A stretch of 64,000 bases of DNA from a plasmid, in sequence record CP132319.1; one strand, written 5' to 3'. The notes below the pieces were generated by a model. The model was not told the origin of the DNA. It ran no database searches and saw nothing but the letters and a program-made list of their open reading frames with translations. Positions 13,470 through 54,732 of this stretch are shown piece by piece; positions within the stretch are counted from its first letter, which is position 1; every line of letters starts with the position of its first letter. A program made the translations under genes and the position numbers.

Positions 13470-13901
13470 TCAGATATTAGGAGGCAGATGCAGACGTGGT
13501 GCCAAGCCAACATAGCGCGTGTCATCGATAAAGCCGTGGACCGGTTCGAAACGCGGATGGGCTAGCGTCGTGCTGCCGCAGTCAATGGCCGCGACGCCAC
13601 AATAGTCCTGACAGCAGCTTTTCTTCGAGCTTTTGGAGTCGGCATGGTCGTGTTGATCGCCATGGTGATCAACGTCGGCCATGGCAGCGTGATCGCTGCC
13701 ATGGGACATTAAATGGTCCGCCTCGACCTGGGTCGCTTCGACCGGCACTTCCGGATGCATTGCAGCGTTGACCGTAGACAAGCTATATCCAGCCAGTGAC
13801 ACGAGGATCACCAGTCGAAAGGCCAGCGCTACCGCTGCAGATGCGAATCGAAAAATTCCGCTCATACTTAAGTAAATCGCTAGACCCTTGAACATTGTCA
13901 A
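13470..13901 (-). CDS. Small membrane-anchored His/Cys-rich protein (member 1 of the Cys-rich paralog family; DUF2946-like?)
   Basis: Hydrophobic N-terminal anchor; HxxH-rich stretch; CCQDYCGVAAIDCG cluster; C-terminal ...LPPNI. Confidence 0.5.
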   Translation of the reverse strand: MTMFKGLAIYLSMSGIFRFASAAVALAFRLVILVSLAGYSLSTVNAAMHPEVPVEATQVEADHLMSHGSDHAAMADVDHHGDQHDHADSKSSKKSCCQDYCGVAAIDCGSTTLAHPRFEPVHGFIDDTRYVGLAPRLHLPPNI

Positions 13902-14017
13902 TCGACGCTTCTCTCAATCATGGATTCGCGACGTTTGTGTGGCATATCCACCACGCGCTAAAATAGGGAAGCACGCTCGGCAGCTCGTGAGCCGACGAGC
14001 GTGTGCTGGCAGTGCCG

Positions 14018-14290
14018 TCAGTTGCTGCGCTGTTTTTTCAGGTAGTCTGCCTGCGGATCGATGATCGATACTGAGCCGTACCGGCTGTTGGTACGTTCGA
14101 CCCTGCCGTTGTCCAGAACGCGAAAGCTGACATCGGGGTCGGACACGGACGATGCTGCATCACCCGGATTGCCGTGTCCCTGCGTAATCTTCGCGATGGG
14201 CGAAGCGGTTTCGCTGAGAATGGTGTTGGCGAAGGCACCGGAGGTGACGGACAGCAAGGCGACAGCGGTGACGGCGATTCGTTTCATCAT
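14018..14290 (-). CDS. Small secreted protein, unknown function, divergent from copRS
   Basis: Clean signal peptide MMKRIAVTAVALLSVTSGAFA; 90 aa. Confidence 0.5.
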   Translation of the reverse strand: MMKRIAVTAVALLSVTSGAFANTILSETASPIAKITQGHGNPGDAASSVSDPDVSFRVLDNGRVERTNSRYGSVSIIDPQADYLKKQRSN

Positions 14291-14369
14291 GATCTATTCC
14301 TCGTTTAAGACTGCTACATGCAGCATCTGGAATTTAGATCGCTCGTTTTTCGCCCACCTGTCCCGCACT

Positions 14370-14382
14370 ATACAAATTTGTA
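14370..14382. promoter_or_regulatory. 13-bp palindrome TACAAATTTGTAA in the divergent promoter region upstream of copR; candidate CopR/CusR-type operator
   Basis: Perfect palindrome read in the sequence; position between divergent 14018..14290 and copR; loosely resembles cop-box half sites (TGTAAT / ATTACA type). Confidence 0.35.
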
Positions 14383-14488
14383 AACCGGGGATCACAGCAT
14401 CTGCCGCAAGAATGCCCAAATCTCAGAGCGTTGAAGTGAGCTACCGGTTTCACTACAGGGCCAAAACTCAAGAAGAATTCTTTGCCGC

Positions 14489-15166
14489 ATGAAAATACTT
14501 ATAATCGAAGATGATCACATCACAGGAACCTACATTCAAAAGGGTTTGAGCACTGCAGGGCACGCAGTAGACTGGCTCCGGGATGGCCGTGACGCGCTCG
14601 CGGCGGGCTTGGACCCAGGGTACGATGTTCTCGTTGTAGATCGAATGATCCCTGGTCTGGATGGCCTGAATCTCGTCAAAGGCTTACGAGCAGCGTCGGT
14701 ACGAACGCCGGTGTTGTTTCTCACGGCGATTAGCGGTGTGGACGATAGGGTCGAGGGTCTAGAAGCAGGCGGTGATGATTATCTGGTGAAGCCTTTTGCG
14801 TTTTCAGAACTAACTGCTCGGATTGGTGCCCTCGTTCGACGCCCCCCAATCGCAATAGAAAGGACAAAGTTGCGGGTAGGCGACTTGGAGATGGACCTGG
14901 TCACCAGAACCACCTGTCGCGCGGGGCAGCGCATCGAACTCCTACCGCGCGAGTTCTCGCTACTGGAATTGTTGATGCGGAATGAGGGGAGGGTCCTTAC
15001 AAAAACGATGTTCCTCGAAAAGATATGGAACTTCAATTTCGACCCGCAAAGTTCCGTTGTGGAAACCCACATCAGCCGCCTGAGGGCGAAGATTGACAAA
15101 CCATTCGAGAATCCACTTTTGCACACCGTCAAGAACACCGGTTATACCTTGCATGCTCGCGGGTAG
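14489..15166 (+). CDS. copR: OmpR-family response regulator (CopR/CusR-like)
   Basis: Receiver domain (MKILIIEDD...D...) plus winged-helix C-terminus; overlaps the downstream histidine kinase. Confidence 0.85.
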   Translation: MKILIIEDDHITGTYIQKGLSTAGHAVDWLRDGRDALAAGLDPGYDVLVVDRMIPGLDGLNLVKGLRAASVRTPVLFLTAISGVDDRVEGLEAGGDDYLVKPFAFSELTARIGALVRRPPIAIERTKLRVGDLEMDLVTRTTCRAGQRIELLPREFSLLELLMRNEGRVLTKTMFLEKIWNFNFDPQSSVVETHISRLRAKIDKPFENPLLHTVKNTGYTLHARG

Positions 15167-16517
15167 CGTATTCAAGAGCACGGCTGTCCGGCTCGCAATT
15201 ATCTATATTGCACTTTTTGTGATTGCCTACCTCGTAGCCAATATCGCGGCCTACCAGATGGTGATTCGATTCCTCGATGACAGGTTGAATGCCAACGTCA
15301 TGGAACGATATCGGGAAATTACCTCAGCTTACGAGGGGCGCGGTCTCGTCGGCGCAGTTCGGATGATCGAGAGCCATGGCCCTGCCATCAGGGGCCAGGA
15401 GACGATGTACACACTGCGAGGCCCCGCTGGCGAACTGGTCGCCGGTAACGCGGAGCTGGCAGATGTGCCAGCAGGGTTCTCGCTGCTCCGGCCGGAGGAC
15501 CAACACGCAAGCGCGTCGCACTACAAGTTGTTCCGAGGCCCATTGGGTGAAAACGATCTGACCGTTGGTATCAGCTACCGCGACACCGACGAACTGGCCC
15601 GGATAGTTTTGATAAGTTTCGGGTGGGCGACCGCGATCATCCTTGCCGTCGGTATGACTGGAGCGGCGATCCTGGCCTATCGCACTCGTAAGCGCATCTT
15701 CGTTCTCTCCCGCACCGCGCACGAAATTGGACATGGCGAGCTTTCCAAACGGCTTCCAGTTTCATCTCGGATGGATGAAATCGACGTCCTTTCGTCTGAG
15801 GTCAATGTCGCGTTGGCGCGGCTGGAATTGAGCGTTTCTACCCTGAAACAGGTAACCACGGACGTCGCTCACGATCTGAAGACACCGATTGGGCGGACCT
15901 TCCTTGTCCTTGAGGATGCCATGGAATCCGATGGGGTCGGGGATATGAGAGGCGGGATCGAAGCCGCCTTGGTCGAACTTAAATCCATTGCCGACACGTT
16001 CGACGCCCTCCTGCGGATCGCGCAGATCGAGGCGCGCATCCGAACAGAAAACTTCACCGTGTTCGATCTGAAGCCCTTGGTCACTGACCTTTACGAAATC
16101 TACGAGGCTATCGCTGTCGAGGGTGGATACGAGCTGTCCCTGAGTATCGGAAGTGGAGCTTGCCTTATAAATGGTGATCCCGATCTCATCCGGCAGTTGT
16201 TGGCCAACCTTCTGACGAACTCAATGAGGCATACGCCAGACGGGTCGAAAATCGCTTTAGAACTCTCGCGTGGCCATCGCACCATCAGTTTGGGCGTTTC
16301 AGATAACGGCTCTGGGATTCCTCGTGAAGAACGGAAACGCGTTTTCGACCGATTTTATCGCCTCGAAAAGAGCAGAACGACAACCGGGTCTGGATTGGGT
16401 CTCAGCCTGGTCAAGGCAATCGCCGAGTTGCACGGCGCAAATACGGAACTGCTGGATAACGAGCCCGGTCTCCAGGTCGTCACAAAGTTTCGAGAGGCGG
16501 AGAACGGGAACCTTTAA
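15153..16517 (+). CDS. copS: Sensor histidine kinase (CopS/CusS-like)
   Basis: Two TM segments, HAMP domain, H-box VAHDLKTPI, HATPase_c with GSGLGLSLVKAIAELHG; start ATG 15153 overlapping the copR stop. Confidence 0.85.
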   Translation: MLAGSVFKSTAVRLAIIYIALFVIAYLVANIAAYQMVIRFLDDRLNANVMERYREITSAYEGRGLVGAVRMIESHGPAIRGQETMYTLRGPAGELVAGNAELADVPAGFSLLRPEDQHASASHYKLFRGPLGENDLTVGISYRDTDELARIVLISFGWATAIILAVGMTGAAILAYRTRKRIFVLSRTAHEIGHGELSKRLPVSSRMDEIDVLSSEVNVALARLELSVSTLKQVTTDVAHDLKTPIGRTFLVLEDAMESDGVGDMRGGIEAALVELKSIADTFDALLRIAQIEARIRTENFTVFDLKPLVTDLYEIYEAIAVEGGYELSLSIGSGACLINGDPDLIRQLLANLLTNSMRHTPDGSKIALELSRGHRTISLGVSDNGSGIPREERKRVFDRFYRLEKSRTTTGSGLGLSLVKAIAELHGANTELLDNEPGLQVVTKFREAENGNL

Positions 16518-16556
16518 GCTCTACCAGGGTTTGCATTTGAGTTTTGGGAGCTTTGA

Positions 16557-16880
16557 ATGCAGGTGCGAACCCAACTTCGGGAAGTTCTGCGCGCGATCAG
16601 TGTTTTGCTGATGGTGCTCCACGTCATGGCCGCTACACCCGCTGGGGTACACCAAATGGGGTGTCGCGAGGTTGAGGTTAGCACAAGCGATTCCCACCGG
16701 GAGATGCTGCCCACGGGCACTTGCTGCACCAACCTTCATTGCTGCCCGGTCATCCAGGACGTTTCGACACCTGGGGCACCGCTTGCGATCCGATATCTCC
16801 CAGAAATGCGGCTTCAGACAGATGTCGCCCTCGTGCTCGACAAATCCATCGACCCGCCCCCTCGAACCCTGTCGCTGTGA
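16557..16880 (+). CDS. Small membrane-anchored Cys-rich protein (member 2 of the Cys-rich paralog family)
   Basis: N-terminal TM (AISVLLMVLHVMAA), CC/CC cluster TGTCCTNLHCCPV, C-terminal ...DPPPRTLSL; GGGAG RBS. Confidence 0.45.
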   Translation: MQVRTQLREVLRAISVLLMVLHVMAATPAGVHQMGCREVEVSTSDSHREMLPTGTCCTNLHCCPVIQDVSTPGAPLAIRYLPEMRLQTDVALVLDKSIDPPPRTLSL

Positions 16881-16911
16881 CGTGTTTTCCTCTCACAAAC
16901 AGGAGTTCAAA

Positions 16912-17334
16912 ATGAAAATCCTTCTGAAATCATCCGTCGCCGCAATCCTACTGGCCACCGTAGTCGGCTCGTTCCCGGCCGCAGCACAGATGGCGTATCC
17001 GGAGAAATGTAAGTCCGACATGGCCAAACCCGGTGACACCACGATGCAAGGCCACGAAATGTCCATGCCCGAAATGACTGACTACCAGAAAGACTCGATG
17101 GACGGCATGAAGATGATGAACATGAACATGATGCAGGGAATGATGAAAAAAGACCCTGACGTCTCGTTCGTGTGCGGAATGATTGCGCACCATATGGGTG
17201 CAATCAGCATGGCTGAGGTCGAACTGAAACACGGCGATAACGCTGAGGCCAAAGCGGCAGCTCAGAAAATCATCGACGATCAAACGAAGGAGGTCGAAGA
17301 GCTGACGTCCTGGGTCGAGAAGGAGGTCAAGTGA
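16912..17334 (+). CDS. DUF305-family periplasmic protein with Met-rich (MxM) copper-binding-like tract
   Basis: Signal peptide; MMNMNMMQGMM tract; DUF305 signature ...CGMIAHHMGAISMAE; RBS AGGAG before ATG 16912. Confidence 0.75.
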   Translation: MKILLKSSVAAILLATVVGSFPAAAQMAYPEKCKSDMAKPGDTTMQGHEMSMPEMTDYQKDSMDGMKMMNMNMMQGMMKKDPDVSFVCGMIAHHMGAISMAEVELKHGDNAEAKAAAQKIIDDQTKEVEELTSWVEKEVK

Positions 17335-17666: not shown

Positions 17667-17674
17667 CCTGACGT

Positions 17675-20097: not shown

Positions 20098-20109
20098 GTC
20101 AGCCTCCCG

Positions 20110-21573
20110 TTAAATTGCGCCGTCATAGGTGATGAACGACATCATACCCGTCGCCATATGGTAGAGGTGGTGGCAATGCAGCGGCCAGCGACCCTGGTTT
20201 ATCGCATCGAAGGCGATGGTAACCTGGGTCATGGGCGGAAGGACCACAGTGTCGCGCACCGCGCCTGTCAGTTTCTTTCCGTTGATCTCGACGACCTGGA
20301 AATGGTGACCATGCAGGTGCATAGGGTGAGCCATCATCGACATGTTGTGCATCGATATCTGTACTCGCTGCCCCTTGGCGACACTCAGCGGCTCCGTCTC
20401 TCCGATACGCCAAGTGTACTTCGCCATGTCGCCAGTGAGCATCAAAGTGTATTGACGATCAGGAGGACGGACCGCCAGCGGCGTCAGGCTCAGGAACTGC
20501 TGCTCCAGTGCGAGGTCGAGGACGGGACCCTTTTCCGTGCCCAGGGCATCGATTTTGTCCACTTGGGCGTCGGCGGTGGCAAGGACGATGCCTGTTCGTT
20601 CCTTGGCTCCTTCGCGCAGGGCCAAAATGGGAAAAGTGCCCGGTCCGGCGGGCAGTTTCACTCTGATATCGACGCGCTGGCCCATGGAAACAGGGAAGCG
20701 ACGTCCGACGATTGGGACGATATCTATTCCGTCGACTGCAATCAGCTCACCGTCGACGGAGCCTGTGTCGATGGTGAAGGCCGTCGCTGTGGCACCATTG
20801 ATGATGCGCAATCGGACTCGGCCACCCTTCTCCACCTGAACAACCTCGGGATCATCAAGGGTCCGGTCGTTGGCGAGATAGGCGTCGTATTCGATGTCGT
20901 TGAGGTCCATGGTCTGCATGTCCATCGTCGGCATCGCCGTGGCTGCATCACCATCCATCGGCATCTGGTGACCGGCATGCTTGTTCGTCAGGATGGTCGA
21001 CATGTCGCCATGGTCCATCAACATCCCCTGCGCAGACCCTTCAGACTGGAGGCCCGCCAGCAACTCTTCGGGCGATCTGAACGAAAAATCATGGAGGAGG
21101 ACCACCACTTCCTGTTCGTCAGTTGCCCGATCTCCGGCGGTACGTACAATCAAAGGTGCCGCCAAAAGGCTCTGTTCCTGAAGGGTGTGGGCATGCATCC
21201 AGTGGGTGCCGCCGTTGCCAACGGGGAAATCGTACAGTCTGGTTTCTTTCGCGTTCAAAAGCGCCGCAGGATTGTCAGGAACTCCATCCATACTCCATGG
21301 AGGCGTTAGCCCATGCCAGTGGATCAAGGTTTCCTCTGCTGTTTCATTGAGGAGGCGGACATTGAACTGTGTTTCCGCGTCCAGGACGAGTCCTGCTCCG
21401 CCGTTGCGGTTCGTGAGCCCGAACACGGATGCAGGCTTACCGTTCACTTCAAGCACACGTTTTCCGATAATCAAGTCGGTCACGGGTGCGCTGGCTCGGG
21501 CGACGGCGGCACCCAGTGGAGAAATTGCCGCTGCGCCGATGGCCAGCGTTTTCAAAAAATGTCGACGATGCAT
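20110..21573 (-). CDS. copA: CopA/PcoA-type multicopper oxidase with Tat signal and Met-rich insert
   Basis: MHRRHFLKTLAIGAAA Tat motif; HWHGL, HPMHLHGHHFQVV, HCHHLYHMATGMM; Met-rich segment MPMDGDAATAMPTMDMQTMD. Confidence 0.85.
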   Translation of the reverse strand: MHRRHFLKTLAIGAAAISPLGAAVARASAPVTDLIIGKRVLEVNGKPASVFGLTNRNGGAGLVLDAETQFNVRLLNETAEETLIHWHGLTPPWSMDGVPDNPAALLNAKETRLYDFPVGNGGTHWMHAHTLQEQSLLAAPLIVRTAGDRATDEQEVVVLLHDFSFRSPEELLAGLQSEGSAQGMLMDHGDMSTILTNKHAGHQMPMDGDAATAMPTMDMQTMDLNDIEYDAYLANDRTLDDPEVVQVEKGGRVRLRIINGATATAFTIDTGSVDGELIAVDGIDIVPIVGRRFPVSMGQRVDIRVKLPAGPGTFPILALREGAKERTGIVLATADAQVDKIDALGTEKGPVLDLALEQQFLSLTPLAVRPPDRQYTLMLTGDMAKYTWRIGETEPLSVAKGQRVQISMHNMSMMAHPMHLHGHHFQVVEINGKKLTGAVRDTVVLPPMTQVTIAFDAINQGRWPLHCHHLYHMATGMMSFITYDGAI

Positions 21574-21646
21574 GGTGTCTCTCTCGATCTCGGTCGGCAT
21601 GCCGACCATGTTGTTGATGATTGTGCCGCGCGTGGGCACGAGGTCG

Positions 21647-21997
21647 TCAGGCAACAGATCGAGGGGGTTCAAACCCAGGTGAGGGGACATGCCCTGAAAG
21701 GCGCACCAGCCAATGTATTTGTGGGCGAGCGGAAAACGGCGCTCTTATCTCTGGGATTGAATCGGCAATCGTCGTAAGGCAGACCGGGCAAGGGGAGCTG
21801 CAGCAAGTCTTGTCATTGAGCGCATCATTTGACTTCGCCGCACGGTGGTGATCCTGCTCATGCACGACGGCTGAACTTTGTGCGCTATAACATGTGTGGG
21901 CGACGGCGTGCGAAACAGGCGCGCTTGAGAAGATTGCGGCGGCGATTAGCGCTACCACAACCCTCCAGAAGCCCGATCTCTTGTCACACCAGCTCAT
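21647..21997 (-). CDS. Small membrane-anchored Cys-rich protein (member 3 of the paralog family), first gene of the MCO-ATPase operon
   Basis: N-terminal TM; CCSSPCPVCL cluster; C-terminal ...GFEPPRSVA. Confidence 0.5.
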   Translation of the reverse strand: MSWCDKRSGFWRVVVALIAAAIFSSAPVSHAVAHTCYSAQSSAVVHEQDHHRAAKSNDALNDKTCCSSPCPVCLTTIADSIPEIRAPFSARPQIHWLVRLSGHVPSPGFEPPRSVA

Positions 21998-22092: not shown

Positions 22093-22116
22093 CCTTCCAA
22101 CAGTGGGAAGGTCAAG
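22093..22116 (-). promoter_or_regulatory. MerR(CueR/HmrR)-type operator/promoter: -35 TTGACC plus dyad CCTTCCAACAGTGGGAAGG
   Basis: Near-perfect 7-bp dyad with TTGACC on the minus strand, 19-nt spacer geometry; upstream of the Cys-rich-MCO-ATPase operon. Confidence 0.6.
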
Positions 22117-23485: not shown

Positions 23486-25963
<2,478 letters not shown>

Positions 25964-27040: not shown

Positions 27041-27063
27041 GCTTCCAACAATGGGAAGGTCAA
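27041..27063 (-). promoter_or_regulatory. MerR(CueR/HmrR)-type operator/promoter: -35 TTGACC plus dyad CTTCCAACAATGGGAAGG, upstream of copZ
   Basis: Almost identical to the box at 22093; TTGACC on the minus strand. Confidence 0.6.
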
Positions 27064-27154: not shown

Positions 27155-27517
27155 ATGGTTGTCATCGCGGCGCTCCGGCGCGTCCTTTTGCTGTTTGCTG
27201 TACTGGGGTTGCTGTTCGCCCCGGCCGCTATCGGCATGGCGATGGCCGCGATGAATCCCGATGCTGGCGCGCAGATGGAGATGGATGGCGACGCGGATAT
27301 GCCGTGCTGCCCAGACGAGCAACCGATCAAGAAGTTCGATTGCGGCAAACCATGCCCGCTGGCTTTGATATGCTCGACCAGTCTCGTCGTGAATTTCGGC
27401 TCCAATGCCGACTGGAAGGTTCTCGTCACCATGCGGAACCTGACGTTCTCGCTCCCCAGCGATAACGACCTCCTATCAACCTTCGCTGAACCACCCACTC
27501 GCCCGCCAAGGGCGTAA
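27155..27517 (+). CDS. Small membrane-anchored Cys-rich protein (member 4 of the paralog family)
   Basis: N-terminal TM; MPCCPDEQPIKKFDCGKPCPLALIC; C-terminal ...EPPTRPPRA. Confidence 0.5.
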   Translation: MVVIAALRRVLLLFAVLGLLFAPAAIGMAMAAMNPDAGAQMEMDGDADMPCCPDEQPIKKFDCGKPCPLALICSTSLVVNFGSNADWKVLVTMRNLTFSLPSDNDLLSTFAEPPTRPPRA

Positions 27518-27604
27518 TCTCACAGGCTTCCGTATGAGCAGGTTGCGATCTGCCTGAATGTGAACGCATGAGCGACGCTTGCTGCGTCCTCCGGTGAGAT
27601 ATCA

Positions 27605-28006
27605 ATGAAAAACATCCCACAAACTATGCGGCTGCTGACAGCTGTTCTTTTCGTGCCGCTTCTTCCTTACACCGTCTCGGCTGGCTCGGCGAACTATGAG
27701 TTCCATCTGGCTGAGACGTCAGTGGCCCAGGGTCCTGAGGCGGTGGTCACCGTTCTCATCAAAGATAAACGGTCCGGCAAACCCGTGTCAGATGCCGTAA
27801 TCTTCGCCACCCGCCTTGACATGGCCCCTGAGGGGATGGAGGCCATGACCACGACATTGGACCCGCTTCCCTCCGAAGAAGCTGGCGTCTATCGCTTCAA
27901 GGCCAACCTCTCCATGGAAGGAGGATGGCGATTTAAACTGGCCCTAAAGGTCCAAGGTGAATCAGAGACGGTCCAAGGCGAGCTGGTTCTGCAGGCAAAG
28001 CCATGA
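27605..28006 (+). CDS. Periplasmic protein of unknown function preceding cusB (possible metallochaperone)
   Basis: Signal peptide; 133 aa; ATGA overlap with the cusB start. Confidence 0.55.
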   Translation: MKNIPQTMRLLTAVLFVPLLPYTVSAGSANYEFHLAETSVAQGPEAVVTVLIKDKRSGKPVSDAVIFATRLDMAPEGMEAMTTTLDPLPSEEAGVYRFKANLSMEGGWRFKLALKVQGESETVQGELVLQAKP

Positions 28007-34994: not shown

Positions 34995-35305
34995 AATATA
35001 GGGAAAAGCGCCCAGGATGGCAAGAATTTGGGGTCAGATGGCTAGTTTCCGATAAGGGTTACTTATCGGGGGTTAGACAACGGGGCACTTTTATGGCAGG
35101 TGTAGAACCCTAGTTGCCGTATAGCTTTCGCGTAGCAAATCGTTTACGATAAAAACAATGGCTTACGATCTCGCGAAATTGCCCATCTCCACCCTGCTGA
35201 AACCCGTTGCCGACGCCAGCTGTGGCTTTTAGCTCCCGATTTCAATTGAAGCGCCAAGCTAAAAAAGCGAGGGCCTGATTTTACCTAAGCTGTTCACGAA
35301 GGCCG

Positions 35306-35809
35306 TCAATTTGTAGGGAGCGATGAGGCACTTGGAGGGAGGTCGGCAGCATTGTCAGCAAGCGGATGCGCTTCGAGATCTGCGATCAGCGACTTCATTT
35401 CACCGATCTCCCGGACCTGAGCTTCGATGATCCCGTCAGCCAGCTTGCGCACCCGCGGATCTCTGATGTGCGCGCGTTCGCTGGTCATGATGGCGATGGA
35501 ATGATGGGGGATCATCGCCTTCATGTAGCTGACATCGTAGACGGTCTCCTGGCTGCGCACGAGCCAAAGGGACCCGGCAAAGACCAAAACGCTGACCGCG
35601 ACAATGACGGCATTGGCAGTCTTGTTCTTATACATTGACCACATGAAGCCGATCATGATGATCGCCATGACCGCGCCCATCAGTAGCGCCATCCACGTCC
35701 TGGTCTGGCTGTAGGTAACGTGATCGAGGGCATACGTATTCAGGTACATTAGACCAAACATGATCACCGTCGAGGTGACGATCATCGTGGCAAAGCGTCC
35801 ATAGGACAT
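35306..35809 (-). CDS. DUF305-family membrane-anchored protein
   Basis: Two N-terminal TM helices; DUF305 signature ...YMKAMIPHHSIAIMTSE (compare MIAHHMGAISMAE at 16912). Confidence 0.7.
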   Translation of the reverse strand: MSYGRFATMIVTSTVIMFGLMYLNTYALDHVTYSQTRTWMALLMGAVMAIIMIGFMWSMYKNKTANAVIVAVSVLVFAGSLWLVRSQETVYDVSYMKAMIPHHSIAIMTSERAHIRDPRVRKLADGIIEAQVREIGEMKSLIADLEAHPLADNAADLPPSASSLPTN

Positions 35810-35824
35810 GGGAATCTCCTTCCT

Positions 35825-36565
35825 CTACTTGATAAGCATCCAGACCGCCATCGCGACCATCATCAGGTTTTCAGTTAATGAGATGAAGCCTAAGGGGACA
35901 TTGCTGTCGCCGCCGACGCAGGCGCATTTCAGTTCACGGCGCTCAATGTAGACGGCCTTCAACACCGAAACGGCACCGATAGTCCCGATCACCAACGCGA
36001 CCGGGATAGCCAGCCACAACAGAAAGCCGGCGATCATCAGGATCCCGGCAAGCGCTTCCCCGAATGGATAGAGGTAGGCATAGCGGACCCAGCGCTGGGC
36101 CAGCAGGTCGTAGCCGAGGAACATGTTGGAGAAGCTCTCGACGTCCCGAAGCTTCAGGATCGCAAGTATACACATGGAAATCGCGATAAACCATTCTAAG
36201 GCACGAGCGGTTAGAACGTCGCTAAACGCCGCCCAACTGGCTGCGAGGGCCATCAGCGCGGCCATGGCAAACACCGCGATCACCGGCTGATAGGTGACAG
36301 CCTTTGGATCGCGAACGGTTTTGCCGAAATGACGAAGCAGATCGTCGTAGCCGCCGACCCGCTGCCCATCGATGAATGTCTGGGGTGTTGTCTCAACCTC
36401 GTGCTCGGCCTTGAAGGAATCGGTCTCTTCGCGGGTTTTCAGCCAGTTGTCGTCAACAGAGAAACCCTCGCGTTTCAGCAGATCGAGGGACTTCAAGCCA
36501 AACGGACAGATGTGGTCGGGCATGACCATCCGATAGATCGTCGCTCTGCGCGAATGAGCATTCAT
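35825..36565 (-). CDS. Glutaredoxin-domain / MauE(DoxX-like) membrane-domain fusion protein (thiol-disulfide oxidoreductase)
   Basis: N-terminal IYRMVMPDHICPFG thioredoxin-fold motif; C-terminal approximately 150 aa with four TM helices and ...CACVGG; overlaps the csoR stop. Confidence 0.65.
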   Translation of the reverse strand: MNAHSRRATIYRMVMPDHICPFGLKSLDLLKREGFSVDDNWLKTREETDSFKAEHEVETTPQTFIDGQRVGGYDDLLRHFGKTVRDPKAVTYQPVIAVFAMAALMALAASWAAFSDVLTARALEWFIAISMCILAILKLRDVESFSNMFLGYDLLAQRWVRYAYLYPFGEALAGILMIAGFLLWLAIPVALVIGTIGAVSVLKAVYIERRELKCACVGGDSNVPLGFISLTENLMMVAMAVWMLIK

Positions 36566-36584
36566 CCGATCACCTCTAATATCT

Positions 36585-36860
36585 CTAGCGCCTTGCGCGA
36601 TCGAACAGCTCGACGAGTTCGTCCAATTTCTGCTGTTGCTCACTCGCATCGCCGGACTTGATTGCATCCGCGACGCAGTGAGCCGCGTGATCACGAAGAA
36701 TCTCGCTCTCAGCTCGGCCGAGGGCTGCTTTCACTGCCTGGATCTGATGCAGGATGTCGATGCAATAGCGATCGTCAGACACCATTCGCGCCAAACCCTG
36801 GACCTGACCGGCAATCCGGTTTAACCGAACGATCTTGGCCCGCTTTCTGTCGCCGCACAT
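36585..36860 (-). CDS. csoR: CsoR/RcnR-family metal-sensing repressor
   Basis: 91 aa; ligand pattern ...YCIDILHQI... and ...HAAHC (Cys-His-Cys spacing typical of Cu(I)-CsoR). Confidence 0.75.
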   Translation of the reverse strand: MCGDRKRAKIVRLNRIAGQVQGLARMVSDDRYCIDILHQIQAVKAALGRAESEILRDHAAHCVADAIKSGDASEQQQKLDELVELFDRARR

Positions 36861-36992
36861 CGTTACCTCTCATACCCTAGGGGAGTATGTTCAACGATCG
36901 CGGTCCGCCATTGTTCCCTTACGACAGCGAAGACTTCGCCCGTACCGGCCCAAAGCGACGCCTAGGTTATGCAGTAAGGGCGAAAAGAGCGT

Positions 36993-38126
36993 TCAAAGCC
37001 CGGAGGCTTTGGTGAGGTTCACGCGGAAGCGATCACGCCGTCGCTGATAGCGTCGCGTCATCTCGGCCGAAGCATGGCCAAGCTGTTTCTGGACATAACG
37101 TTCGTCGACCTCGGCTGAAGAGGCGAGACCGGCGCGGAGGGAGTGACCGGAGAACTTGAAGGCGCGCTCGATCTCGCTGAGATTGCCGCGAACGCCGGCC
37201 GCCAGTGCGGTGCGCTTTACCAGCCGGGCGACCTCCTTGTCGTTCAGCCGCTCCGATCCGACAGCTTTCCCTTGCCCTGTCACGCGGCGAAAAAGGGGAC
37301 CGTGGGCCAGCCTGGCGAACTTGATCCACATCTCGATCGCGGCGACCGGGCAGGTCGCGTCAGACGAGCCGCGACCCACCTCAACCTCCCGCCATCCGGT
37401 TTTTCCGCGCAGGGTAACGAGCATCCCCTTGTCGAGGATTTCGATCCAGCCGCGCCCGTCTTCGGTCTGGTCTGCCTTCAGATCAAGGCCAACGATCTCG
37501 GAGCGGCGAAGACCACCGGCAAAGCCGACCAGCAACATGGCGCGGTCGCGCAGGCCGCGCAGCGAACCGCGGTCGAGCGTCTCGACCATGGCGATGATGT
37601 CTTCAGCCATGACCGCTTCCTTCTGCACCGGTGGCTTGGCATGGCTGTTGCGAATGCCAGCCATCACGGTGGCGATATGCCGGTCCTTGCGATCGAGCGA
37701 GAGGCCGCGCTGGGCATAGTTCCAGGAAAGCGAGGAGAGGCGTCGTTCGATGGTCGAGACGGAGTTCGCTTTCGCGCCCCGTTCAGCCGTGCCGGAAGCG
37801 CAGGCCGTAATATAAAGCCCTACAGTTTGCGGATGTGGGGGGAGGGGAGTGAGATTCGAGCGCCGGCACCAGGCTGAAAAATGCTTCCAATCGGCGGCAT
37901 AGGCTTTGCGCGTGTTGGCGGAACTGGCGGCTTCAACATAACCCCGGGCGCGATCAGCAAGGCTTGCAAGATGGGCGGGCGTCTGGTCCTGAATGGCGAG
38001 AGAGGGGAGGGGGCTATCGCCCGACACCCCCGGCGTGGAAACATCACGCTTCGGCGCCGTGCTGAGAGACGGCGCAGAGATCTCCTCGAAGTGATTTTCG
38101 GTTTTTTGCTCGATCATTTGGGCCAT
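36993..38126 (-). CDS. Tyrosine site-specific recombinase (phage integrase family; plasmid resolvase-like)
   Basis: C-terminal catalytic residues ...HSLRAGLA...LGHASAEMTRRY; 377 aa. Confidence 0.8.
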   Translation of the reverse strand: MAQMIEQKTENHFEEISAPSLSTAPKRDVSTPGVSGDSPLPSLAIQDQTPAHLASLADRARGYVEAASSANTRKAYAADWKHFSAWCRRSNLTPLPPHPQTVGLYITACASGTAERGAKANSVSTIERRLSSLSWNYAQRGLSLDRKDRHIATVMAGIRNSHAKPPVQKEAVMAEDIIAMVETLDRGSLRGLRDRAMLLVGFAGGLRRSEIVGLDLKADQTEDGRGWIEILDKGMLVTLRGKTGWREVEVGRGSSDATCPVAAIEMWIKFARLAHGPLFRRVTGQGKAVGSERLNDKEVARLVKRTALAAGVRGNLSEIERAFKFSGHSLRAGLASSAEVDERYVQKQLGHASAEMTRRYQRRRDRFRVNLTKASGL

Positions 38127-38233
38127 TTCTCTATTATGAGAAAAACATCCGATAATGCAAGATTATCGTTCGTTTTTATCTGTCGACGGGCGCGGCGGTT
38201 TATGCGCCAGATACTGGCTCAAAGCGCCGTCTT

Positions 38234-43390: not shown

Positions 43391-43393
43391 GGC

Positions 43394-43424
43394 TTGACCC
43401 TGTAGTTGCTACAGGCCTCATGTA
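43394..43424 (+). promoter_or_regulatory. MerR(PbrR/CadR)-type promoter of the Zn/Cd/Pb ATPase gene: -35 TTGACC plus dyad CCTGTAGttgCTACAGG
   Basis: Perfect 7-bp dyad in the spacer; about 35 nt upstream of the ATPase start. Confidence 0.65.
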
Positions 43425-49880: not shown

Positions 49881-50100
49881 GATCCCGGTTCGGGCAGAGG
49901 TCGCGGACCTGTCCATGCTGTCGGCGCACGCCGACGCAAACGAGCTGATGCGCTGGCTGTCCGGCTTCCGTCGGCCGCCGTCCCGCGTGTTCATCGTGCA
50001 TGGTGAAGACGATGCCTCCGAAGCGCTGCGCGTGCGGATCGACCGCGAGCTTGGATGGAACGCAGTCGTCTCACGCCAGAATCAGGCTTTCGACCTATGA
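49881..50100 (+). pseudogene. 3'-terminal fragment of an MBL-fold beta-CASP gene (only the last approximately 70 codons)
   Basis: ...PVRAEVADLSMLSAHADANELMRWL...VFIVHGEDDASEAL matches beta-CASP motif C and the C-terminus; it abuts the truncated cusA paralog. Confidence 0.5.
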
Positions 50101-51629
50101 CGATCAACAACGTCGAACCCGAGGTTCCTTCTCAGCCGACGCTACGCGTGCGGCGCCTGCGGCTGCACACTCAGCACCAGGCCGTGGTGGTGATGCGCAC
50201 CGATTGCCATGTCTGCCGCTCGGAGGGTCTGTCCGCGCGCACCCAGGTCCTCGTCTCGATCGGCGCGAGACAGGTACAGGCAACGCTCTTTCAGGTCGAA
50301 GGAGATGCATTGCTCGCTCAGGATGAAGTCGGTCTTTCTGAAACAGCCTGGCAGATCCTCGGCGTTAGCGAGAATGACAATGTGACGGTGACCCATCCTC
50401 CGGCCGTGGAGTCTCTGACGAGCGTGCGCCGTCGCATATATGGCAATCGCCTCGACGCGCACGCCTTTGCCGAAATCGTGAGCGACGTGGTCGCAGGCCG
50501 CTATACCGAGGTCCATCTCGCCGCCTTTCTGACCGCCAGTGCCGCGCTTCCTCTCGACGAGAGCGAGACTGTTGACCTCACGCGCGCCATGGTCGATGTC
50601 GGCGACCGGATGAGCTGGAATGCTCCGATCGTTGTGGACAAGCACTGTGTCGGCGGGTTGCCGGGCAATCGAACCACGCCGATCGTCGTCGCGATCGTGG
50701 CCGCCAATGGCCTTGTCATGCCGAAGACGTCTTCGCGCGCGATTACCTCGCCAGCCGGCACCGCCGACACAATGGAAACGCTTGCCCCTGTCGACCTCAG
50801 CATCGAAACCCTTCGACGCGTCGTGGAAGCAGAAGGCGGATGCATCGCCTGGGGCGGGGCGGTGCATCTCAGCCCCGCCGACGACATTTTCGTCCGGATC
50901 GAACGCGAACTCGACGTGGATACCGAGGGACAGCTTGTCGCTTCCGTCCTTTCAAAAAAAATCGCCGCTGGCTCGACGCATGTGGTTATCGACATCCCGG
51001 TTGGGGCAACCGCCAAGGTGCGCAGCGAAGCGGCCGCCGATCAGCTCGCCAGTCGCCTCAGCGCCGTCGCTGCCCGTTTCGATCTGGCCCTGACCTGCGT
51101 CCAGACCGACGGTTCGCAACCCGTCGGGCGCGGCATCGGCCCAGGTCTAGAAGCCTTCGACGTCCTGGCGGTTCTTCAAAACGCGCCGGATGCGCCGGAC
51201 GATCTGCGACGCCGCGCGATCCTGTTGGCGGGCGCCGCGCTTGAGATCGGTGGAAAGGCCGCAAAGGGGAAAGGTGAAGCGCTTGCGTTGGCGACCTTGG
51301 TCGACGGTCGTGCCTGGTCGAAGTTCATGGCGATCTGCGAGGCGCAAGGCGGACTTCGTGAGCCACCGAAGGCCGCACAGGTTCATCCGTTGATCGCGTC
51401 GCGCGCCGGCCGCGTCGTCCATATCAACAATCGCAAAATCGCCCGACTCGCCAAGCTCGCCGGAGCGCCGGAGTCGAAGGCGGCAGGCGTCCAAATGGCC
51501 GTCCGCCTCGGCGACGAGATCGCCAGCGGCCAGCCGCTTTTGCACGTTCACGCCGAGACGGCTGGTGAACTTGGCTACGCACTGGACTATGCCGCGCATG
51601 CAGGCGACCTTTTCGAGGTCGAAAGTTGA
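50097..51629 (+). CDS. Thymidine phosphorylase-family protein (TP-like, about 510 aa)
   Basis: Glycosyl-transferase family-3 fold motifs ...DKHCVGGLPGNRTTP... and ...SRAITSPAGTADTME; C-terminal PYNP domain; ATGA coupling with the upstream fragment. Confidence 0.7.
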   Translation: MTINNVEPEVPSQPTLRVRRLRLHTQHQAVVVMRTDCHVCRSEGLSARTQVLVSIGARQVQATLFQVEGDALLAQDEVGLSETAWQILGVSENDNVTVTHPPAVESLTSVRRRIYGNRLDAHAFAEIVSDVVAGRYTEVHLAAFLTASAALPLDESETVDLTRAMVDVGDRMSWNAPIVVDKHCVGGLPGNRTTPIVVAIVAANGLVMPKTSSRAITSPAGTADTMETLAPVDLSIETLRRVVEAEGGCIAWGGAVHLSPADDIFVRIERELDVDTEGQLVASVLSKKIAAGSTHVVIDIPVGATAKVRSEAAADQLASRLSAVAARFDLALTCVQTDGSQPVGRGIGPGLEAFDVLAVLQNAPDAPDDLRRRAILLAGAALEIGGKAAKGKGEALALATLVDGRAWSKFMAICEAQGGLREPPKAAQVHPLIASRAGRVVHINNRKIARLAKLAGAPESKAAGVQMAVRLGDEIASGQPLLHVHAETAGELGYALDYAAHAGDLFEVES

Positions 51630-52150
51630 CGTGGCGGCTGTCCATTTGGATACGCCGGCACCGTCCGGCCGGCGCATTCTCGATCTACCAGCGCTTGATG
51701 CACTGGATGGTCCTTATCCTGTGTATCATCCAGGTCCCCACGGCCTGGGCGATCCAACGCACGCACATGGCGCACCTTTTCTTGAAACCTAAACCCTTCG
51801 ACCTTTTCCTGCATCAGGTTCACGCCTGGAGCGGATGGCTGATTATGGCGCTGGCGCTCAGTCAACTTATTCTGCGCTTCACATATGGCCGACCACCTCC
51901 GATCCAGGGCATGTCGGTGCTTGAGCGCATGATCGCAGGGGTCACTCATGCGGTGCTCTACGGCCTATTGCTCGCACTGCCGATCACAGGCACGATCGCT
52001 ATGTACGTGACGTTCCGCATCGCTTCCCTGCACAGCCTGCTGAGCTGGATGCTTCTGGTCGTTGCGACCACTCACGCCCTCGCTGCTCTGTGGCATCACT
52101 TCTGGCGTCGCGACGACGTGCTGCGGCGAATGATCAGGAACACGAAATAG
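51626..52150 (+). CDS. Cytochrome b561-family (Ni/Fe-hydrogenase b-type cytochrome-like) membrane protein
   Basis: Four TM helices with conserved His (LMHW..., HQVHAWSGW, AGVTHAVLYG, ATTHALAALWHH); the start codon is uncertain (TTG 51626 or an internal Met). Confidence 0.65.
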   Translation: MTWRLSIWIRRHRPAGAFSIYQRLMHWMVLILCIIQVPTAWAIQRTHMAHLFLKPKPFDLFLHQVHAWSGWLIMALALSQLILRFTYGRPPPIQGMSVLERMIAGVTHAVLYGLLLALPITGTIAMYVTFRIASLHSLLSWMLLVVATTHALAALWHHFWRRDDVLRRMIRNTK

Positions 52151-52369
52151 CGCGCCGGACAGTCAGCCCACGGGTAAATTCTATCTAGTCGAGCGCGCTT
52201 CTCCGCGCGAGCAGCACACTCATTTGCGGAGATTGGCGCGCAGGTCGTTTCGGTGAGCGGCCTCGCAAGCATTGATCCCTACGTGTTTGATGCAGCGCAA
52301 AGTGATCATTCTGGATCTGCGCTAGATTTGCCCCCAGTTTCTACATTCAAGCAAACCGAAGGATGAGCC

Positions 52370-52801
52370 GTGGTGGCCGCCGGCGTGACAATGGTCAAGG
52401 CGTTCAGAAGGTCGCATAATTGGGCGACCGCCTTGCGGCGCGGGTTTATCCTTTTCTTCGCCATCGCGTTCGGGCTTACGGCGTTTCTCACAGATGGCGG
52501 GCATCAAGCGCGTGCTGCTTCAAGGGAGGGCATCCCGGCGCTCATGACTCAAGCTGGGGATTGTGCCGACCTCCTCGTGCGCATGCCCTGCGACAACGAT
52601 ACCCAACGCGGCGCCGAGCACCCGTGCGACAGCGGTCACTGCCTGTCGAGCCTCGGGTGCTTCCTCTGCGCTCCGCTGAACACGGCCTGGAGCTGGCGCA
52701 CGTTGAACGCCGAGACAGTCTCGCCGGCTGCATCGCCCGTGCCCTCATCCGCGGAGTTGCGTCGTCAGAAGCGACCTCCGCGATCCATCTTGGTCATCTG
52801 A
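52370..52801 (+). CDS. Small membrane-anchored Cys-rich protein (member 5 of the paralog family)
   Basis: TM (GFILFFAIAFGLTAFL); DCADLLVRMPCDNDTQRGAEHPCDSGHCLSSLGCFLCAP; C-terminal ...KRPPRSILVI. Confidence 0.45.
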   Translation: MVAAGVTMVKAFRRSHNWATALRRGFILFFAIAFGLTAFLTDGGHQARAASREGIPALMTQAGDCADLLVRMPCDNDTQRGAEHPCDSGHCLSSLGCFLCAPLNTAWSWRTLNAETVSPAASPVPSSAELRRQKRPPRSILVI

Positions 52802-53120
52802 GCACCTTCGGCCTGTTCTGTCCGTGTGCTCCAGCCGACCCGAGGACTGGCACAATGCCTTAGTCTTCCGACCGTGCGCGTCCCAGGCCGCCCAACGATA
52901 CGGCCGAGGAGACGAGCCGTTCTGCGTGACGCCGACGTGACATAGCCTCCAATCGTCGGCTGCCGGCGAGCCAGAAAGGGCCATGCACGGACCTTGCCGA
53001 AATCGGTAGGCAGCGGCACGCGAGGAAGTCTTCGGTATCCGCACGCCGGGCCACTTTTCAAACTCACCTCAAGATGTGCTCGAGCAGCCCGCAAGGCTGC
53101 GAGCCGAGGAGCTGAATACC

Positions 53121-54260
53121 ATGTTAAAGACCCACTCGACCCGTTCGATTTCCATCACCGCGGCAGTCCTGACAGCAACCGCGATTCGCAGACGTGCGGC
53201 CATGCTGGCCTTCGCGACGGCATCGGCCCTGGTGCTTGCTATTCCGTTCGCCGCCACCGTCCGAGCGGAGCCTGCTGCAACCGGCTTCGTCTATACGGCC
53301 GATGAATTTGGCAACACCGTTAGCCGCATCGACCTTGCCACGGAAAAGATCGACATCGTTCCGGTCCCGATCACGCCCCACAACGTGCAGTTCGTATCGG
53401 GAAAAGATTTGGTGCTGGCGGTGGGCCTGCCGGTCGCCGGCAAAGCTGAAGACGCTCATGCGTCCAATGGGGCTGGCCATGGCGGCGACGGACATGGTGA
53501 TGCCGCTGTCGCAGGCCAATTGATCGTCCTCGACGCGGCCGATATTTCCTCCGGCGTGAAGGCGTCGATCCCCGTGGGTGGGCATCCTGCGCATGTGATC
53601 GCAGACGCGCAAGGCAATCGCGCCTACGTCTCGAATTCCGAAGACGACAGCTTGTCGGTCGTTGATCTTGCCAAGGGCGAGGTCGTCGCCACGGTCGGCA
53701 CCGGCGACTACCCCCACGGCCTGCGGATGAGCCCGGATGGAAGCGCCATCTATGTCGCGAATGTCCAGGACGGTACTGTTTCGGTTATCGACACAACGGC
53801 GCTTTCGGAAGTTGCCAGGATCAAGGTAGGCGTTGCGCCCGTCCAGGTCGGCTTCACACCTGACGGAAAGCGGGTCTATGTCTCGCTGCGCGATGAAAAC
53901 AAGGTCGCCGTTATCGACACGCAGTCGCGCGAGGTGATCGCACGCATCAATGTCGGCCGTTCGCCCATCCAGGTTTACGCCACGCCTGATGGCCGGCTGG
54001 TTTACGTCGCGAACCAGGGAACCGAAACGGAGCCGGATGAGACGGTCTCGGTTATCGATGTCGTAGGCGGGAATGTCGTGAAGACCATCCAGACGGACAA
54101 GGGCGCTCACGGCGTGACGGTCGTTGCCGACGGAGCCTTTGTCTTCGTCACCAACATCGTGGCCGGGACCGTTTCCCAGATCGACGTCGGCAGCCAGTCC
54201 GTGGTCAAGACATATGCTGTCGGCAAGGGACCGAACGGCGTCACCTATCAGGCGCAGTGA
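53121..54260 (+). CDS. Secreted YVTN-family seven-bladed beta-propeller protein with a His/Gly-rich insert
   Basis: Repeated ...YV(S/A)N...D..vsviD... blades; RRR-containing signal (possibly Tat); insert AHASNGAGHGGDGHGDAA. Confidence 0.7.
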   Translation: MLKTHSTRSISITAAVLTATAIRRRAAMLAFATASALVLAIPFAATVRAEPAATGFVYTADEFGNTVSRIDLATEKIDIVPVPITPHNVQFVSGKDLVLAVGLPVAGKAEDAHASNGAGHGGDGHGDAAVAGQLIVLDAADISSGVKASIPVGGHPAHVIADAQGNRAYVSNSEDDSLSVVDLAKGEVVATVGTGDYPHGLRMSPDGSAIYVANVQDGTVSVIDTTALSEVARIKVGVAPVQVGFTPDGKRVYVSLRDENKVAVIDTQSREVIARINVGRSPIQVYATPDGRLVYVANQGTETEPDETVSVIDVVGGNVVKTIQTDKGAHGVTVVADGAFVFVTNIVAGTVSQIDVGSQSVVKTYAVGKGPNGVTYQAQ

Positions 54261-54381
54261 TGCAACGTCGGGGCGGCGCTTCGCCGCCCCGCACGACCTA
54301 AGCCTCAAACCTATGAGCAGGACGGCCGGCATGCAGGCTTCATCAATGGACAAAGGGTCGGCGAGGCTCTATTCTTTGCCC

Positions 54382-54732
54382 ATGCTTCGCGCGTTGCTTA
54401 TCATTGTTACAACCATCTCGCTTGCCGCTGCTTCTTTTGCCGTTCAAGCACACGAGACCCGCATGTCCGGGATGTTGGAACGCGCCGCGCTGACGCAGCA
54501 CATGGAGCAAGCCTCTTCTTCGATGGCCGCTTGCAGCGAAGGGAAATCCTGCAAAGCAGATGCCGGATTGTGCACCTTCGCCTGCGCCGGAATATCGGCC
54601 TGGCTTCCGGTTGTGCGTACTTCGGCAAAGCAAATCAGCTCGCGGCAAAAATATCCCTTCCCGCCGGATGCCGTCTTCGTTGCGGCAGCTCCCGGCCGGA
54701 ATGATCGCCCTCCTATATCGCGCCTCCTCTGA
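54382..54732 (+). CDS. Small membrane-anchored Cys-rich protein (member 6 of the paralog family), directly upstream of a multicopper oxidase gene
   Basis: TM (LLIIVTTISLAAASFA); CSEGKSCKADAGLCTFACAG; C-terminal ...DRPPISRLL. The start could also be the upstream Met at 54331 or 54346. Confidence 0.5.
   Translation: MLRALLIIVTTISLAAASFAVQAHETRMSGMLERAALTQHMEQASSSMAACSEGKSCKADAGLCTFACAGISAWLPVVRTSAKQISSRQKYPFPPDAVFVAAAPGRNDRPPISRLL

Follow-up and report, generated by a model that had tools for sequence, protein, structure and literature searches.

Six small Cys-rich open reading frames at the copper modules of plasmid record CP132319.1 as candidate CutF-like leader peptides

The 64,000-nt stretch of plasmid record CP132319.1 considered here (the window) contains six small open reading frames (ORFs), named m1 to m6 in window order, each encoding a Cys-rich product with a Pro-Pro (PP) motif close to its C-terminus. 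All six, with the tails quoted for them, translate as reported in an earlier description of this DNA, made from the letters alone (the sequence-only reading), which saw in them a paralogous family of membrane-anchored proteins, each beside a copper gene. Indeed, each ORF lies at a copper module, although the immediate neighbors of m5, a cytochrome b561 gene and a YncE/cytochrome-D1-like beta-propeller gene, are not obviously copper genes. The comparisons described below suggest that these ORFs are probably cis-acting copper-sensing leader peptides of the CutF-like class.

Gene annotation was taken from the NCBI Prokaryotic Genome Annotation Pipeline (PGAP) for a near-identical plasmid record, NZ_CP132308.1 (Shinella sumterensis 1760953, plasmid unnamed6). 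Apart from a difference in mobile elements at about 35.3-38.2 kb, this record is colinear with the window; window positions 35265-38150, about 2.9 kb, correspond there to about 6.3 kb of TniB/Mu-transposase/integrase genes, a size difference indicating that the window is a close variant of that plasmid. PGAP calls m1, m4 and m6 "hypothetical protein", while m2, m3 and m5 are absent from the gene table, which omits pseudogenes, so that the absence is not absolute. The whole syntenic island is present on plasmid pAt1 of Agrobacterium tumefaciens (locus L003), with full-length orthologs of m1 (50% identity), m2 (42%), m3 (45%) and m4 (66%) that retain the motifs; conservation is highest in their hydrophobic N-terminus, in the Cys cluster and in the PP tail. 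Synteny is conserved among plasmids of Agrobacterium, Rhizobium, Neorhizobium, Shinella and Rhodobacterales. In a tblastn search of all plasmids, matches were found in 119 records for m1, 80 for m4, 16 for m6, 10 for m2 and 7 for m3, some of the copies being annotated as hypothetical proteins. Homologs of m6 occur in genomes at about 58 loci and comprise 28 distinct proteins; the scan of the genome collection used one N-terminal pattern and covers m6-type relatives only, and with this single pattern it did not return CutF of Rhodobacter capsulatus. A word-indexed search of a collection of 5.8 billion proteins with m3 gave no match.

The relatives of m5 on plasmids are all at least 89% identical to it and are never annotated. 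With respect to a 90% identical relative, 17 substitutions are found, distributed 5/6/6 over the codon positions, so that a codon-position or dN/dS (nonsynonymous to synonymous rate) test is uninformative or neutral; the divergence is 4.5%, compared with 4.7% in the adjoining intergenic DNA, and no Cys or PP residue is substituted. An exhaustive HMMER search identified distant homologs in the range of 25-39% identity, one at 39% (E 5e-23) and others at about 30%, in which four Cys residues (HPCxxxxCxxxxxCxxCAP) and an RPPR tail are invariant; since distant homologs keep these elements, m5 can be regarded as real. A thymidine-phosphorylase-family gene lies 5' of m5 (window 50096-51629), and one is also located 5' of the 39% identical homolog, on an unrelated metagenome contig (L075, 2325-3857), where it comes after genes for phosphoribosyl pyrophosphate synthetase and a beta-CASP protein. 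On these sequence comparisons all six ORFs are real genes, three of which are missing from the annotation.

The six products share one architecture, as the sequence-only reading had proposed, and both the orthologs and a chance test bear this out, including the conserved C-terminal PP motif. Among 221 window ORFs of 70-170 aa from all six frames, PP[RINT] within the last 12 residues is found in 8, an N-terminal hydrophobic segment in 22 and a Cys cluster in 62. All three features occur together in five ORFs, whereas about 0.2 would be expected under independence, an excess of about 25-fold; m6 is the sixth, missed in the scan only because its longest ORF starts farther upstream. A relaxed scan of the window for any PP tail revealed no further convincing member. 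The N-termini consist of a basic n-region and a hydrophobic stretch with Kyte-Doolittle values of 2.2-2.7 over 15-17 residues. This segment had been described as a transmembrane helix; on a heuristic reading, it looks rather like a cleavable Sec-type (general secretion) signal peptide, with AxA-type sites (VNA/A, SHA/V, AMA/A and VQA/H, the slash marking the putative cleavage) that are conserved in the orthologs. Of the Cys spacings given earlier, that of m4 has to be corrected to CC-x10-C-x3-C, not x9, and that of m5 to C-x8-C-x11-C-x4-C-x5-C-x2-C.

Small exported proteins encoded upstream of copper genes are known in which copper is sensed through a Cys motif and the ribosome is arrested by a proline motif at the C-terminus (PMC8456105; PMC9973294; PMC9426467). 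Indeed, the role of these ORFs, which the sequence-only reading called currently unannotated, has a precedent, since from 2021 onward the literature presents CutF-like/DUF2946-like proteins as leader peptides that act in cis and sense copper (PMC8456105; PMC9973294, preprint 10.1101/2022.11.11.516240; PMC9426467; 10.1101/2025.02.05.636593). In CutF of R. capsulatus, the arrest melts a stem-loop in which the Shine-Dalgarno sequence (SD) belonging to the multicopper oxidase gene cutO is hidden (PMC8456105; PMC9973294; 10.1101/2025.02.05.636593). The filter used by Ozturk for CutF-like proteins asks for less than 150 aa (2023) or less than 170 aa (2021), a signal peptide, PP in the last 15 residues and a next gene on the same strand less than 1000 nt away, mostly less than 100 nt. 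The window ORFs have sizes of 143, 107, 116, 120, 143 and 116 aa, and the gaps to the next same-strand gene are 87, 31, 73, 87, 319 and 75 nt, respectively; all fall within these limits. PP is found 2-6 residues before the stop codon in all six and is conserved in the orthologs, and a central Cys motif is always present, namely CxxxC in m1, m3, m4 and m6, CCxxxHCC in m2 and CxxxxC...CxxC in m5. The oxidases 3' of m3 and m6 both begin with twin-arginine translocation (Tat) signals, as CutO does.

The distance between the two motifs deserves particular attention, since in CruR the Cys-to-PP spacing is functionally important (PMC9426467). CutF contains C69xxxC73 and ends with ...GPPPRL118, which places its Cys residues 45 and 41 residues before the first Pro. 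The corresponding distances are 45/41 in m3, 46/42 in m6, 43/39 in m1 and 44/38 in m2, and m4 and m5 have a Cys at 46 and 45, respectively; thus, all six ORFs have a Cys 43-46 residues ahead of PP. This spacing is invariant in m1 orthologs at 37-55% identity (44/43/39), in m3 orthologs at 32-45% identity (46/45/41/38) and in the m6 family at about 58 genome loci (46/42), and m2 orthologs at 29-42% identity keep 44/43/38/37 together with an IDPPPR tail; taken over the families, which span 29-55% identity, the distances do not vary within any one of them. The tails LPPN, DPPPR, EPPR, RPPR and RPPI/K are nearer to GPPPR of CutF than to RAPP of CruR.

Cross-family comparisons were carried out with 32 sequences from all six families. 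Their joint alignment has one invariant column, a Cys, and two prolines conserved in at least 90% of the sequences, and identity of the other families to m1 is 11-21%. With hhalign, m1 and m3 are linked with 85% probability (His-rich and CC region), m4 and m6 with 84% (CxxxC through PP), m2 and m3 with 78% (signal-peptide region) and m1 and m4 with 51%, while m5 remained unlinked with the then-shallow profile. The 465 window ORFs with 50 aa or more were also searched with hidden Markov models (HMMs) from which each family in turn was left out; in six of six cases the ORF of the omitted family came first among the 460 non-members, with E values between 4e-6 and 0.045. When the models were restricted to the C-terminal 70 residues, m4 and m5 were recovered and m1 and m6 were marginal. 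Residue-level homology among all six is thus only partly supported, being detectable for some pairs. The term "paralogous family" is too strong for genes with so low an identity to m1 and with syntenic orthologs of their own; they are not recent paralogs. In our reading of the sequences, they would form a loose CutF-like superfamily of six different subfamilies, each probably passed on together with its operon, to judge from the synteny kept across plasmids. The only curated families that recur among the 32 members, always below threshold, are CopL_fam, with eight members matching (best E 2.5e-5), and DUF2946, with five (best E 0.0098); the CzcI family (NF045614) is hit by a single one of the 32 (E 0.0032), which does not indicate membership. 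CopL, DUF2946 and CzcI are placed in one CutF-like network in the CutF papers.

A second line of evidence comes from the RNA between each ORF and the following gene. In minimum free energy (MFE) folds the final codons pair with the SD region of the next gene at five of the six junctions, and in four families comparative data can be added. Among 18 distinct junction RNAs of the m6 family, 90.7% of the cells are paired, compared with 34-56% in slid controls, and compensatory changes are seen at six pairs, of which four belong to the closing helix. The closing helix of the m3 family is kept, with one compensatory pair (U-A to C-G), and its two internal hairpins stay paired through changes on both sides. 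In the m4 family the helix formed by the stop codon and UCUCAC with GUGAGAU is invariant, while the interior is almost wholly changed; in the m1 family all four orthologs retain the closing helix, and the changes in it are confined to one side of a pair. A stem-loop able to shield the SD, with a conserved closing helix, is thus found in the m1, m3, m4 and m6 families. The leader following m5 is of a different kind, with 319 nt in the window and 359 nt in a distant homolog, and contains conserved islands; the downstream beta-propeller gene is also conserved. No known RNA family was detected with Rfam at any of the six loci.

At the m6 junction, a hairpin GGGAC-N5-GUCCC (54781-54795) abuts the SD of the oxidase gene; its sequence is 100% invariant in the 18 distinct m6-family RNAs, whereas the neighboring hairpins covary freely, and it may have a sequence-specific role. 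At the m4 junction, 27626 is the start that PGAP assigns to the YtkA/FixH-like gene; translation from an ATG at 27605, which follows GGUGAG, yields a product of 133 aa, in agreement with the 132-133 aa products of four related loci, and the SD of this start is also masked by the conserved helix. The annotated start is therefore probably 21 nt too far downstream.

Table 1. The six ORFs, their junction RNAs and the genes that follow (positions in the 64,000-nt window)
Feature	Position	Strand	Description
m1, 143-aa candidate CutF-like leader ORF	13470..13901	-	His-rich linker, CCxxxC, tail HLPPNI-stop; PGAP hypothetical, WP_306041595
m1-lipoprotein intergenic RNA, 87 nt	13383..13469	-	closing helix AUCUGAGAA (final m1 codon, stop codon and bases directly after) with UUCUCGGAU (directly 5' of the next start codon)
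Genes 3' of m1	11701..13382	-	73-aa lipoprotein (13161-13382), TolC-family outer membrane protein (11701-13161); conserved synteny; further on, copper oxidase, azurin-like and copper-binding protein genes
m2, 107-aa candidate CutF-like leader ORF	16557..16880	+	CCxxxHCC, tail DPPPRTLSL-stop; absent from gene table
31-nt gap after m2 and DUF305 gene (16912-17334)	16881..17334	+	MFE fold pairs GAACCCUGU (final m2 codons) with ACAGGAGUUC (SD of DUF305 gene); then four-helix-bundle copper-binding protein gene
m3, 116-aa candidate CutF-like leader ORF	21647..21997	-	CCxxxCxxC, tail FEPPRSVA-stop; absent from gene table
m3-oxidase intergenic RNA, 73 nt	21574..21646	-	closing helix CUCGAUCU (Pro-Arg-Ser codons of m3) with AGAUCGAG (overlaps SD region of oxidase gene); two internal hairpins
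Tat-signal multicopper oxidase (MHRRHFLK...), predicted m3 target	20110..21573	-	then copper P-type ATPase gene
CueR-type operator dyad CCTTCC-N7-GGAAGG in TTGACC promoter	22093..22111	-	0 mismatches; about 100 nt 5' of m3
m4, 120-aa candidate CutF-like leader ORF	27155..27517	+	CC...CxxxC...C, tail EPPTRPPRA-stop; PGAP hypothetical, WP_226923704
87-nt gap after m4 and YtkA/FixH-like gene (probable start 27605)	27518..28006	+	helix UAAUCUCAC (stop codon and bases after) with GUGAGAU at SD, invariant; then CusB, CusA
m5, 143-aa ORF from GTG start (alternative ATG 52391)	52370..52801	+	HPCxxxxCxxxxxCxxC, tail KRPPRSILVI-stop; absent from gene table
319-nt leader with conserved islands and YncE/cytochrome-D1-like beta-propeller gene (53121-54260)	52802..54260	+	
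m6, 116-aa candidate CutF-like leader ORF	54382..54732	+	C-x5-C-x6-CxxxC, tail DRPPISRLL-stop; PGAP hypothetical, WP_094542215, start placed 17 codons farther upstream
m6-oxidase intergenic RNA, 75 nt	54733..54807	+	closing helix of final codons (..GCGCCUC, last Leu codons) with SD region GAGGUGACG; two internal hairpins
Tat-signal multicopper oxidase (MTTFSRRGFLA...), predicted m6 target	54808..56292	+	

In the explanation that we favor, each of the six ORFs would encode a CutF-like leader peptide that senses copper and acts in cis; we assign to this reading a probability of about 75%. The PP(R/I/N) tail would then most likely be a ribosome-arrest motif and not a tail for anchoring or delivery; among the roles considered in the sequence-only reading, sensing is thus favored, while membrane anchoring and copper delivery fit less well with a PP tail read as an arrest motif next to an mRNA helix. 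The proposed mechanism, by analogy with R. capsulatus CutF, would start with the co-translational export of the nascent chain through SecYEG, driven by the N-terminal signal peptide. With the ribosome at the C-terminal Pro-Pro codons, the CxxxC-type motif, located about 40-46 residues upstream, would just have emerged into the periplasm; copper bound to it could block the pulling or folding that normally frees the slow Pro-Pro step. The ribosome would then pause 2-6 codons ahead of the stop codon, covering and melting the 5' strand of the helix between the ORF end and the SD, and the next gene could be translated. Predicted targets are the lipoprotein gene, followed by TolC and the copper oxidase, for m1; DUF305, followed by the four-helix-bundle copper protein, for m2; the Tat-exported multicopper oxidases for m3 and m6; and the YtkA-like gene, followed by CusBA, for m4. 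Finally, m5 shares the peptide features of the others, but with its 319-nt leader it may act in another way, such as the Rho-dependent attenuation described for CruR.

Several points weigh against the leader-peptide interpretation. The relation to DUF2946 suggested by the sequence-only reading is borne out by the recurrent sub-threshold CopL_fam and DUF2946 matches, but none of the six window ORFs matches the Pfam DUF2946 model (PF11162), even at E values up to 10, and the 40-bit cut-off of the NCBIfam model CopL_fam (NF033807) is reached by none of them; the best is m1 with 18.1 bits (E 0.0032), followed, always below the cut-off, by m6 (E 0.019), m5 (0.06) and m4 (0.4), with no match for m2 and m3. 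Thus, of the profile searches and alignment that the same reading had indicated as a check, the alignment gave its invariant Cys and the PP columns conserved in at least 90%, while no curated cut-off was reached. The CXXC and RAPP motifs of DUF2946 are replaced by CxxxC/CC variants and L/D/E/R-PP-N/R/I, and about 36-40 residues separate the Cys motif from PP, compared with 45 in DUF2946. Without the signal-peptide region, the leave-one-family-out search fails for m2 and m3. As for the RNA, single-sequence folds have z-scores of only about -2, and the duplex energies between ORF ends and SD are no better than those of random segment pairs of the GC-rich window (Fisher p = 0.2); this test being not significant, thermodynamics was not used as evidence and the comparative data were relied on. 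Even there, the CCUC:GAGG core of the m6-family closing helix never varies and is hence uninformative, and closing-helix conservation could partly come from coding and SD constraints. In the m2 family, anti-SD pairing is found in three of four sequences, at positions that are not alignable. At m5 no short-range helix between ORF end and SD is present, the 319-nt gap does not fit a short stem-loop model, and the long-range pairing of PP codons with the SD proposed by RNAalifold, obtained from two sequences only, is not trustworthy. Moreover, the sequences show real genes, motifs conserved along with their spacing, conserved synteny and a helix kept with covariation, and from these we infer that the products are exported, bind copper and stall the ribosome, and also in which direction they regulate.

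Within the leader-peptide interpretation, a more far-reaching version can be envisaged, which we regard as speculative and rather doubtful as a whole: the six would be non-redundant nascent-chain copper sensors with differing Cys/His ligands, each switching on its module by translation at its own periplasmic copper threshold, on top of the transcriptional control by CueR/CopRS; two of them, m2 (DUF305 and a four-helix-bundle, Csp-like copper-storage protein) and m5 (YncE-like beta-propeller), would extend the mechanism to targets not found named in the CutF papers, and m5 would use a long-leader read-out by Rho-dependent attenuation or by a new RNA element.

The alternative that survives best, although unlikely, is that some members, m5 above all, are leaders of opposite polarity as CruR, in which a stall in the absence of copper protects the transcript and relief by copper leads to Rho termination. 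The length of the m5 leader (319-359 nt) with its conserved islands would fit the 162-nt intergenic region and Rho-dependent termination of CruR, and the m5 target, a beta-propeller, is not an obvious detoxification enzyme; however, the tails are xPPR, as in CutF (GPPPRL), and not RAPP, and copper induction is the sensible direction for oxidase and efflux genes. Less probable still is the possibility that the products are stable periplasmic or membrane-anchored copper chaperones feeding the adjoining oxidases or efflux systems, with the proline-rich tail as a protein-protein interaction motif. This was the original CutF hypothesis, discussed as a model in the 2021 CutF paper, and copper delivery was also the candidate named first in the sequence-only reading; it agrees with the copper-ligand-like Cys/His motifs, the putative export signal and the cuproenzyme neighbors. 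CutF itself, however, is undetectable in vivo, acts only in cis and is dispensable once the stem-loop is mutated. In the present ORFs conservation is confined to the Cys motif, the PP tail and the distance between the two, while the rest diverges quickly, and a chaperone offers no rationale for an exact Cys-to-PP distance together with a conserved helix between ORF end and SD. Fast divergence outside the motifs, as in m5, which changes at the intergenic rate with Cys and PP untouched, is what would be expected of a leader peptide rather than of a folded chaperone.

A further, quite improbable explanation is that of trans-acting periplasmic regulators, as proposed for CzcI and CopL, which would bind metal and act on a CopRS-type kinase or an efflux pump. 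It would account for the sub-threshold matches to CopL_fam ("metal-binding regulatory protein") and the one CzcI match, for the position of m2 directly after a sensor kinase gene, and for an m4-like protein encoded at locus L004 that has no PP tail, as CzcI. Conversely, copL of Xanthomonas reportedly does not act in trans, six of six window members keep the PP tail at its spacing, and the m2 family in R. johnstonii occurs without adjoining copRS. The m4-like ORF in question (L004, 10257-10574), with 43% identity over the Cys region, precedes genes for a 411-aa hypothetical protein and an LLM-class flavin oxidoreductase, and recalls CzcI-type relatives in which the arrest motif was lost. Lastly, spurious ORFs generated by GC-rich DNA, an idea that could appeal to the unannotated state of m2, m3 and m5, to the m3 search without match and to the missing codon-position bias of m5, are ruled out by the ortholog comparisons, since all six have full-length homologs at 25-66% identity that keep motifs, spacing and synteny, and the feature combination is about 25-fold above chance.

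As regards promoters and gene order, the sequence-only reading had placed a CueR-type box ahead of two operons leading from a Cys-rich ORF to an oxidase; the box is perfect upstream of m3, whereas none was found upstream of m6, where it was looked for. The ORF reported as divergent from copZ is indeed m4, with a near-perfect dyad at 27041-27059 facing copZ, and the one said to lie between copS and the DUF305 gene is m2, located between a sensor kinase gene and that gene. Just past the stop codon of the beta-propeller gene, a GC-rich hairpin without T-run, GGGGCGGCGCTTCGCCGCCCC (54260-54300), lies 80-120 nt ahead of m6 and bears on whether m6 has its own promoter or depends on read-through. Elsewhere in the window, a MerR-type promoter with a 19-nt spacer and the perfect dyad CTTGACCCTGTAGTTGCTACAGGCCTCATGT (43393-43423, + strand) is found just 5' of a heavy-metal P-type ATPase gene and is divergent from a gene for a helix-turn-helix (MerR-like) regulator. 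Two modules about 82% identical, at 9519-11622 and 57827-59934, encode a copper oxidase, a plastocyanin/azurin-like protein and a copper-binding protein; m1 and the lipoprotein and TolC genes precede only the first copy, and the second seems to be without a leader ORF. On either side of m1 lies another conserved small ORF, one for the 73-aa lipoprotein between m1 and TolC (lipobox VSGC) and one, upstream of m1, for a 90-aa secreted protein (14018-14290, - strand); neither product is matched by a Pfam model, and the synteny in Agrobacterium plasmids includes both. Finally, at 2539-2693 Rfam recognizes the repABC antisense counter-transcribed RNA (RF00489) and the S-element (RF00490) beside the repABC genes, which fits a repABC plasmid.

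No new kind of system is revealed by these data, and what is new is limited to three unannotated genes, to subfamilies that escape Pfam and NCBIfam thresholds and to two target contexts, those of m2 (DUF305 and four-helix-bundle) and m5 (beta-propeller, 319-nt leader), that were not found named in those main texts of the CutF papers that were searched. The annotation gap is nevertheless relevant: half of these putative regulatory ORFs were missed by PGAP and none is caught at Pfam or NCBIfam thresholds, so that post-transcriptional copper control would be invisible in the routine annotation of copper-resistance plasmids, including this record of human source. Moreover, with six different metal-binding motifs and five types of target on a single plasmid, in bacteria that are easy to manipulate genetically, these ORFs form a small natural collection in which the CutF/CruR mechanism can be tested.

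Among known systems, SecM-secA, VemP, MifM and ApdA/ApdP provide the general model, in which an exported nascent chain is stalled close to the C-terminus and an mRNA structure hiding the SD of the next gene is opened by the stalled ribosome; differently from them, the signal sensed here would be periplasmic copper and not translocon activity, and both the arrest motif and the downstream genes are others. CzcI usually has no C-terminal PP motif, which is present in all six window ORFs. CopL of Xanthomonas and Stenotrophomonas is likewise encoded by a small Cys/His-rich ORF directly upstream of a copper oxidase gene, copA, and copL is needed in cis for copper-induced expression; CopL_fam is the best profile match found here, although far below its cut-off. 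With CruR (Bp2923 of Bordetella pertussis) and DUF2946 the ORFs share small size, putative export, a position at the head of a copper-related operon and a Cys motif at fixed distance from a PP motif, here a predicted arrest motif. However, DUF2946/CruR proteins have CXXC and RAPP with 45 intervening residues, as opposed to CxxxC/CC and xPP(R/N/I), and CruR represses a TonB-dependent importer through Rho, while the genes considered here are resistance genes, expected to be copper-induced.

The closest resemblance, judged from the published description of CutF, is to CutF itself, of the cutFOG operon. The products have 107-143 aa, compared with 118 aa, and a Sec-type signal, putative in the window ORFs; a central CxxxC-type motif, at times with an extra upstream Cys, is followed at about 45/41 residues by a PP(P)R tail, a few residues and the stop codon. 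The ORF stands first, ahead of the gene for a Tat-exported multicopper oxidase (m3, m6) or of genes for outer membrane efflux proteins, resistance-nodulation-division pumps or chaperones (m1, m4), and the intergenic region between is short and contains an SD-masking helix. Unlike CutF, the six belong to separate subfamilies with variable Cys motifs (CCxxxC, CCxxxHCC, CCxxxCxxC and others). Six copies within 41 kb of one plasmid also exceed the norm, since the literature gives an average of two CutF-like genes per genome; with five in R. capsulatus, however, such an accumulation is dense but not surprising.

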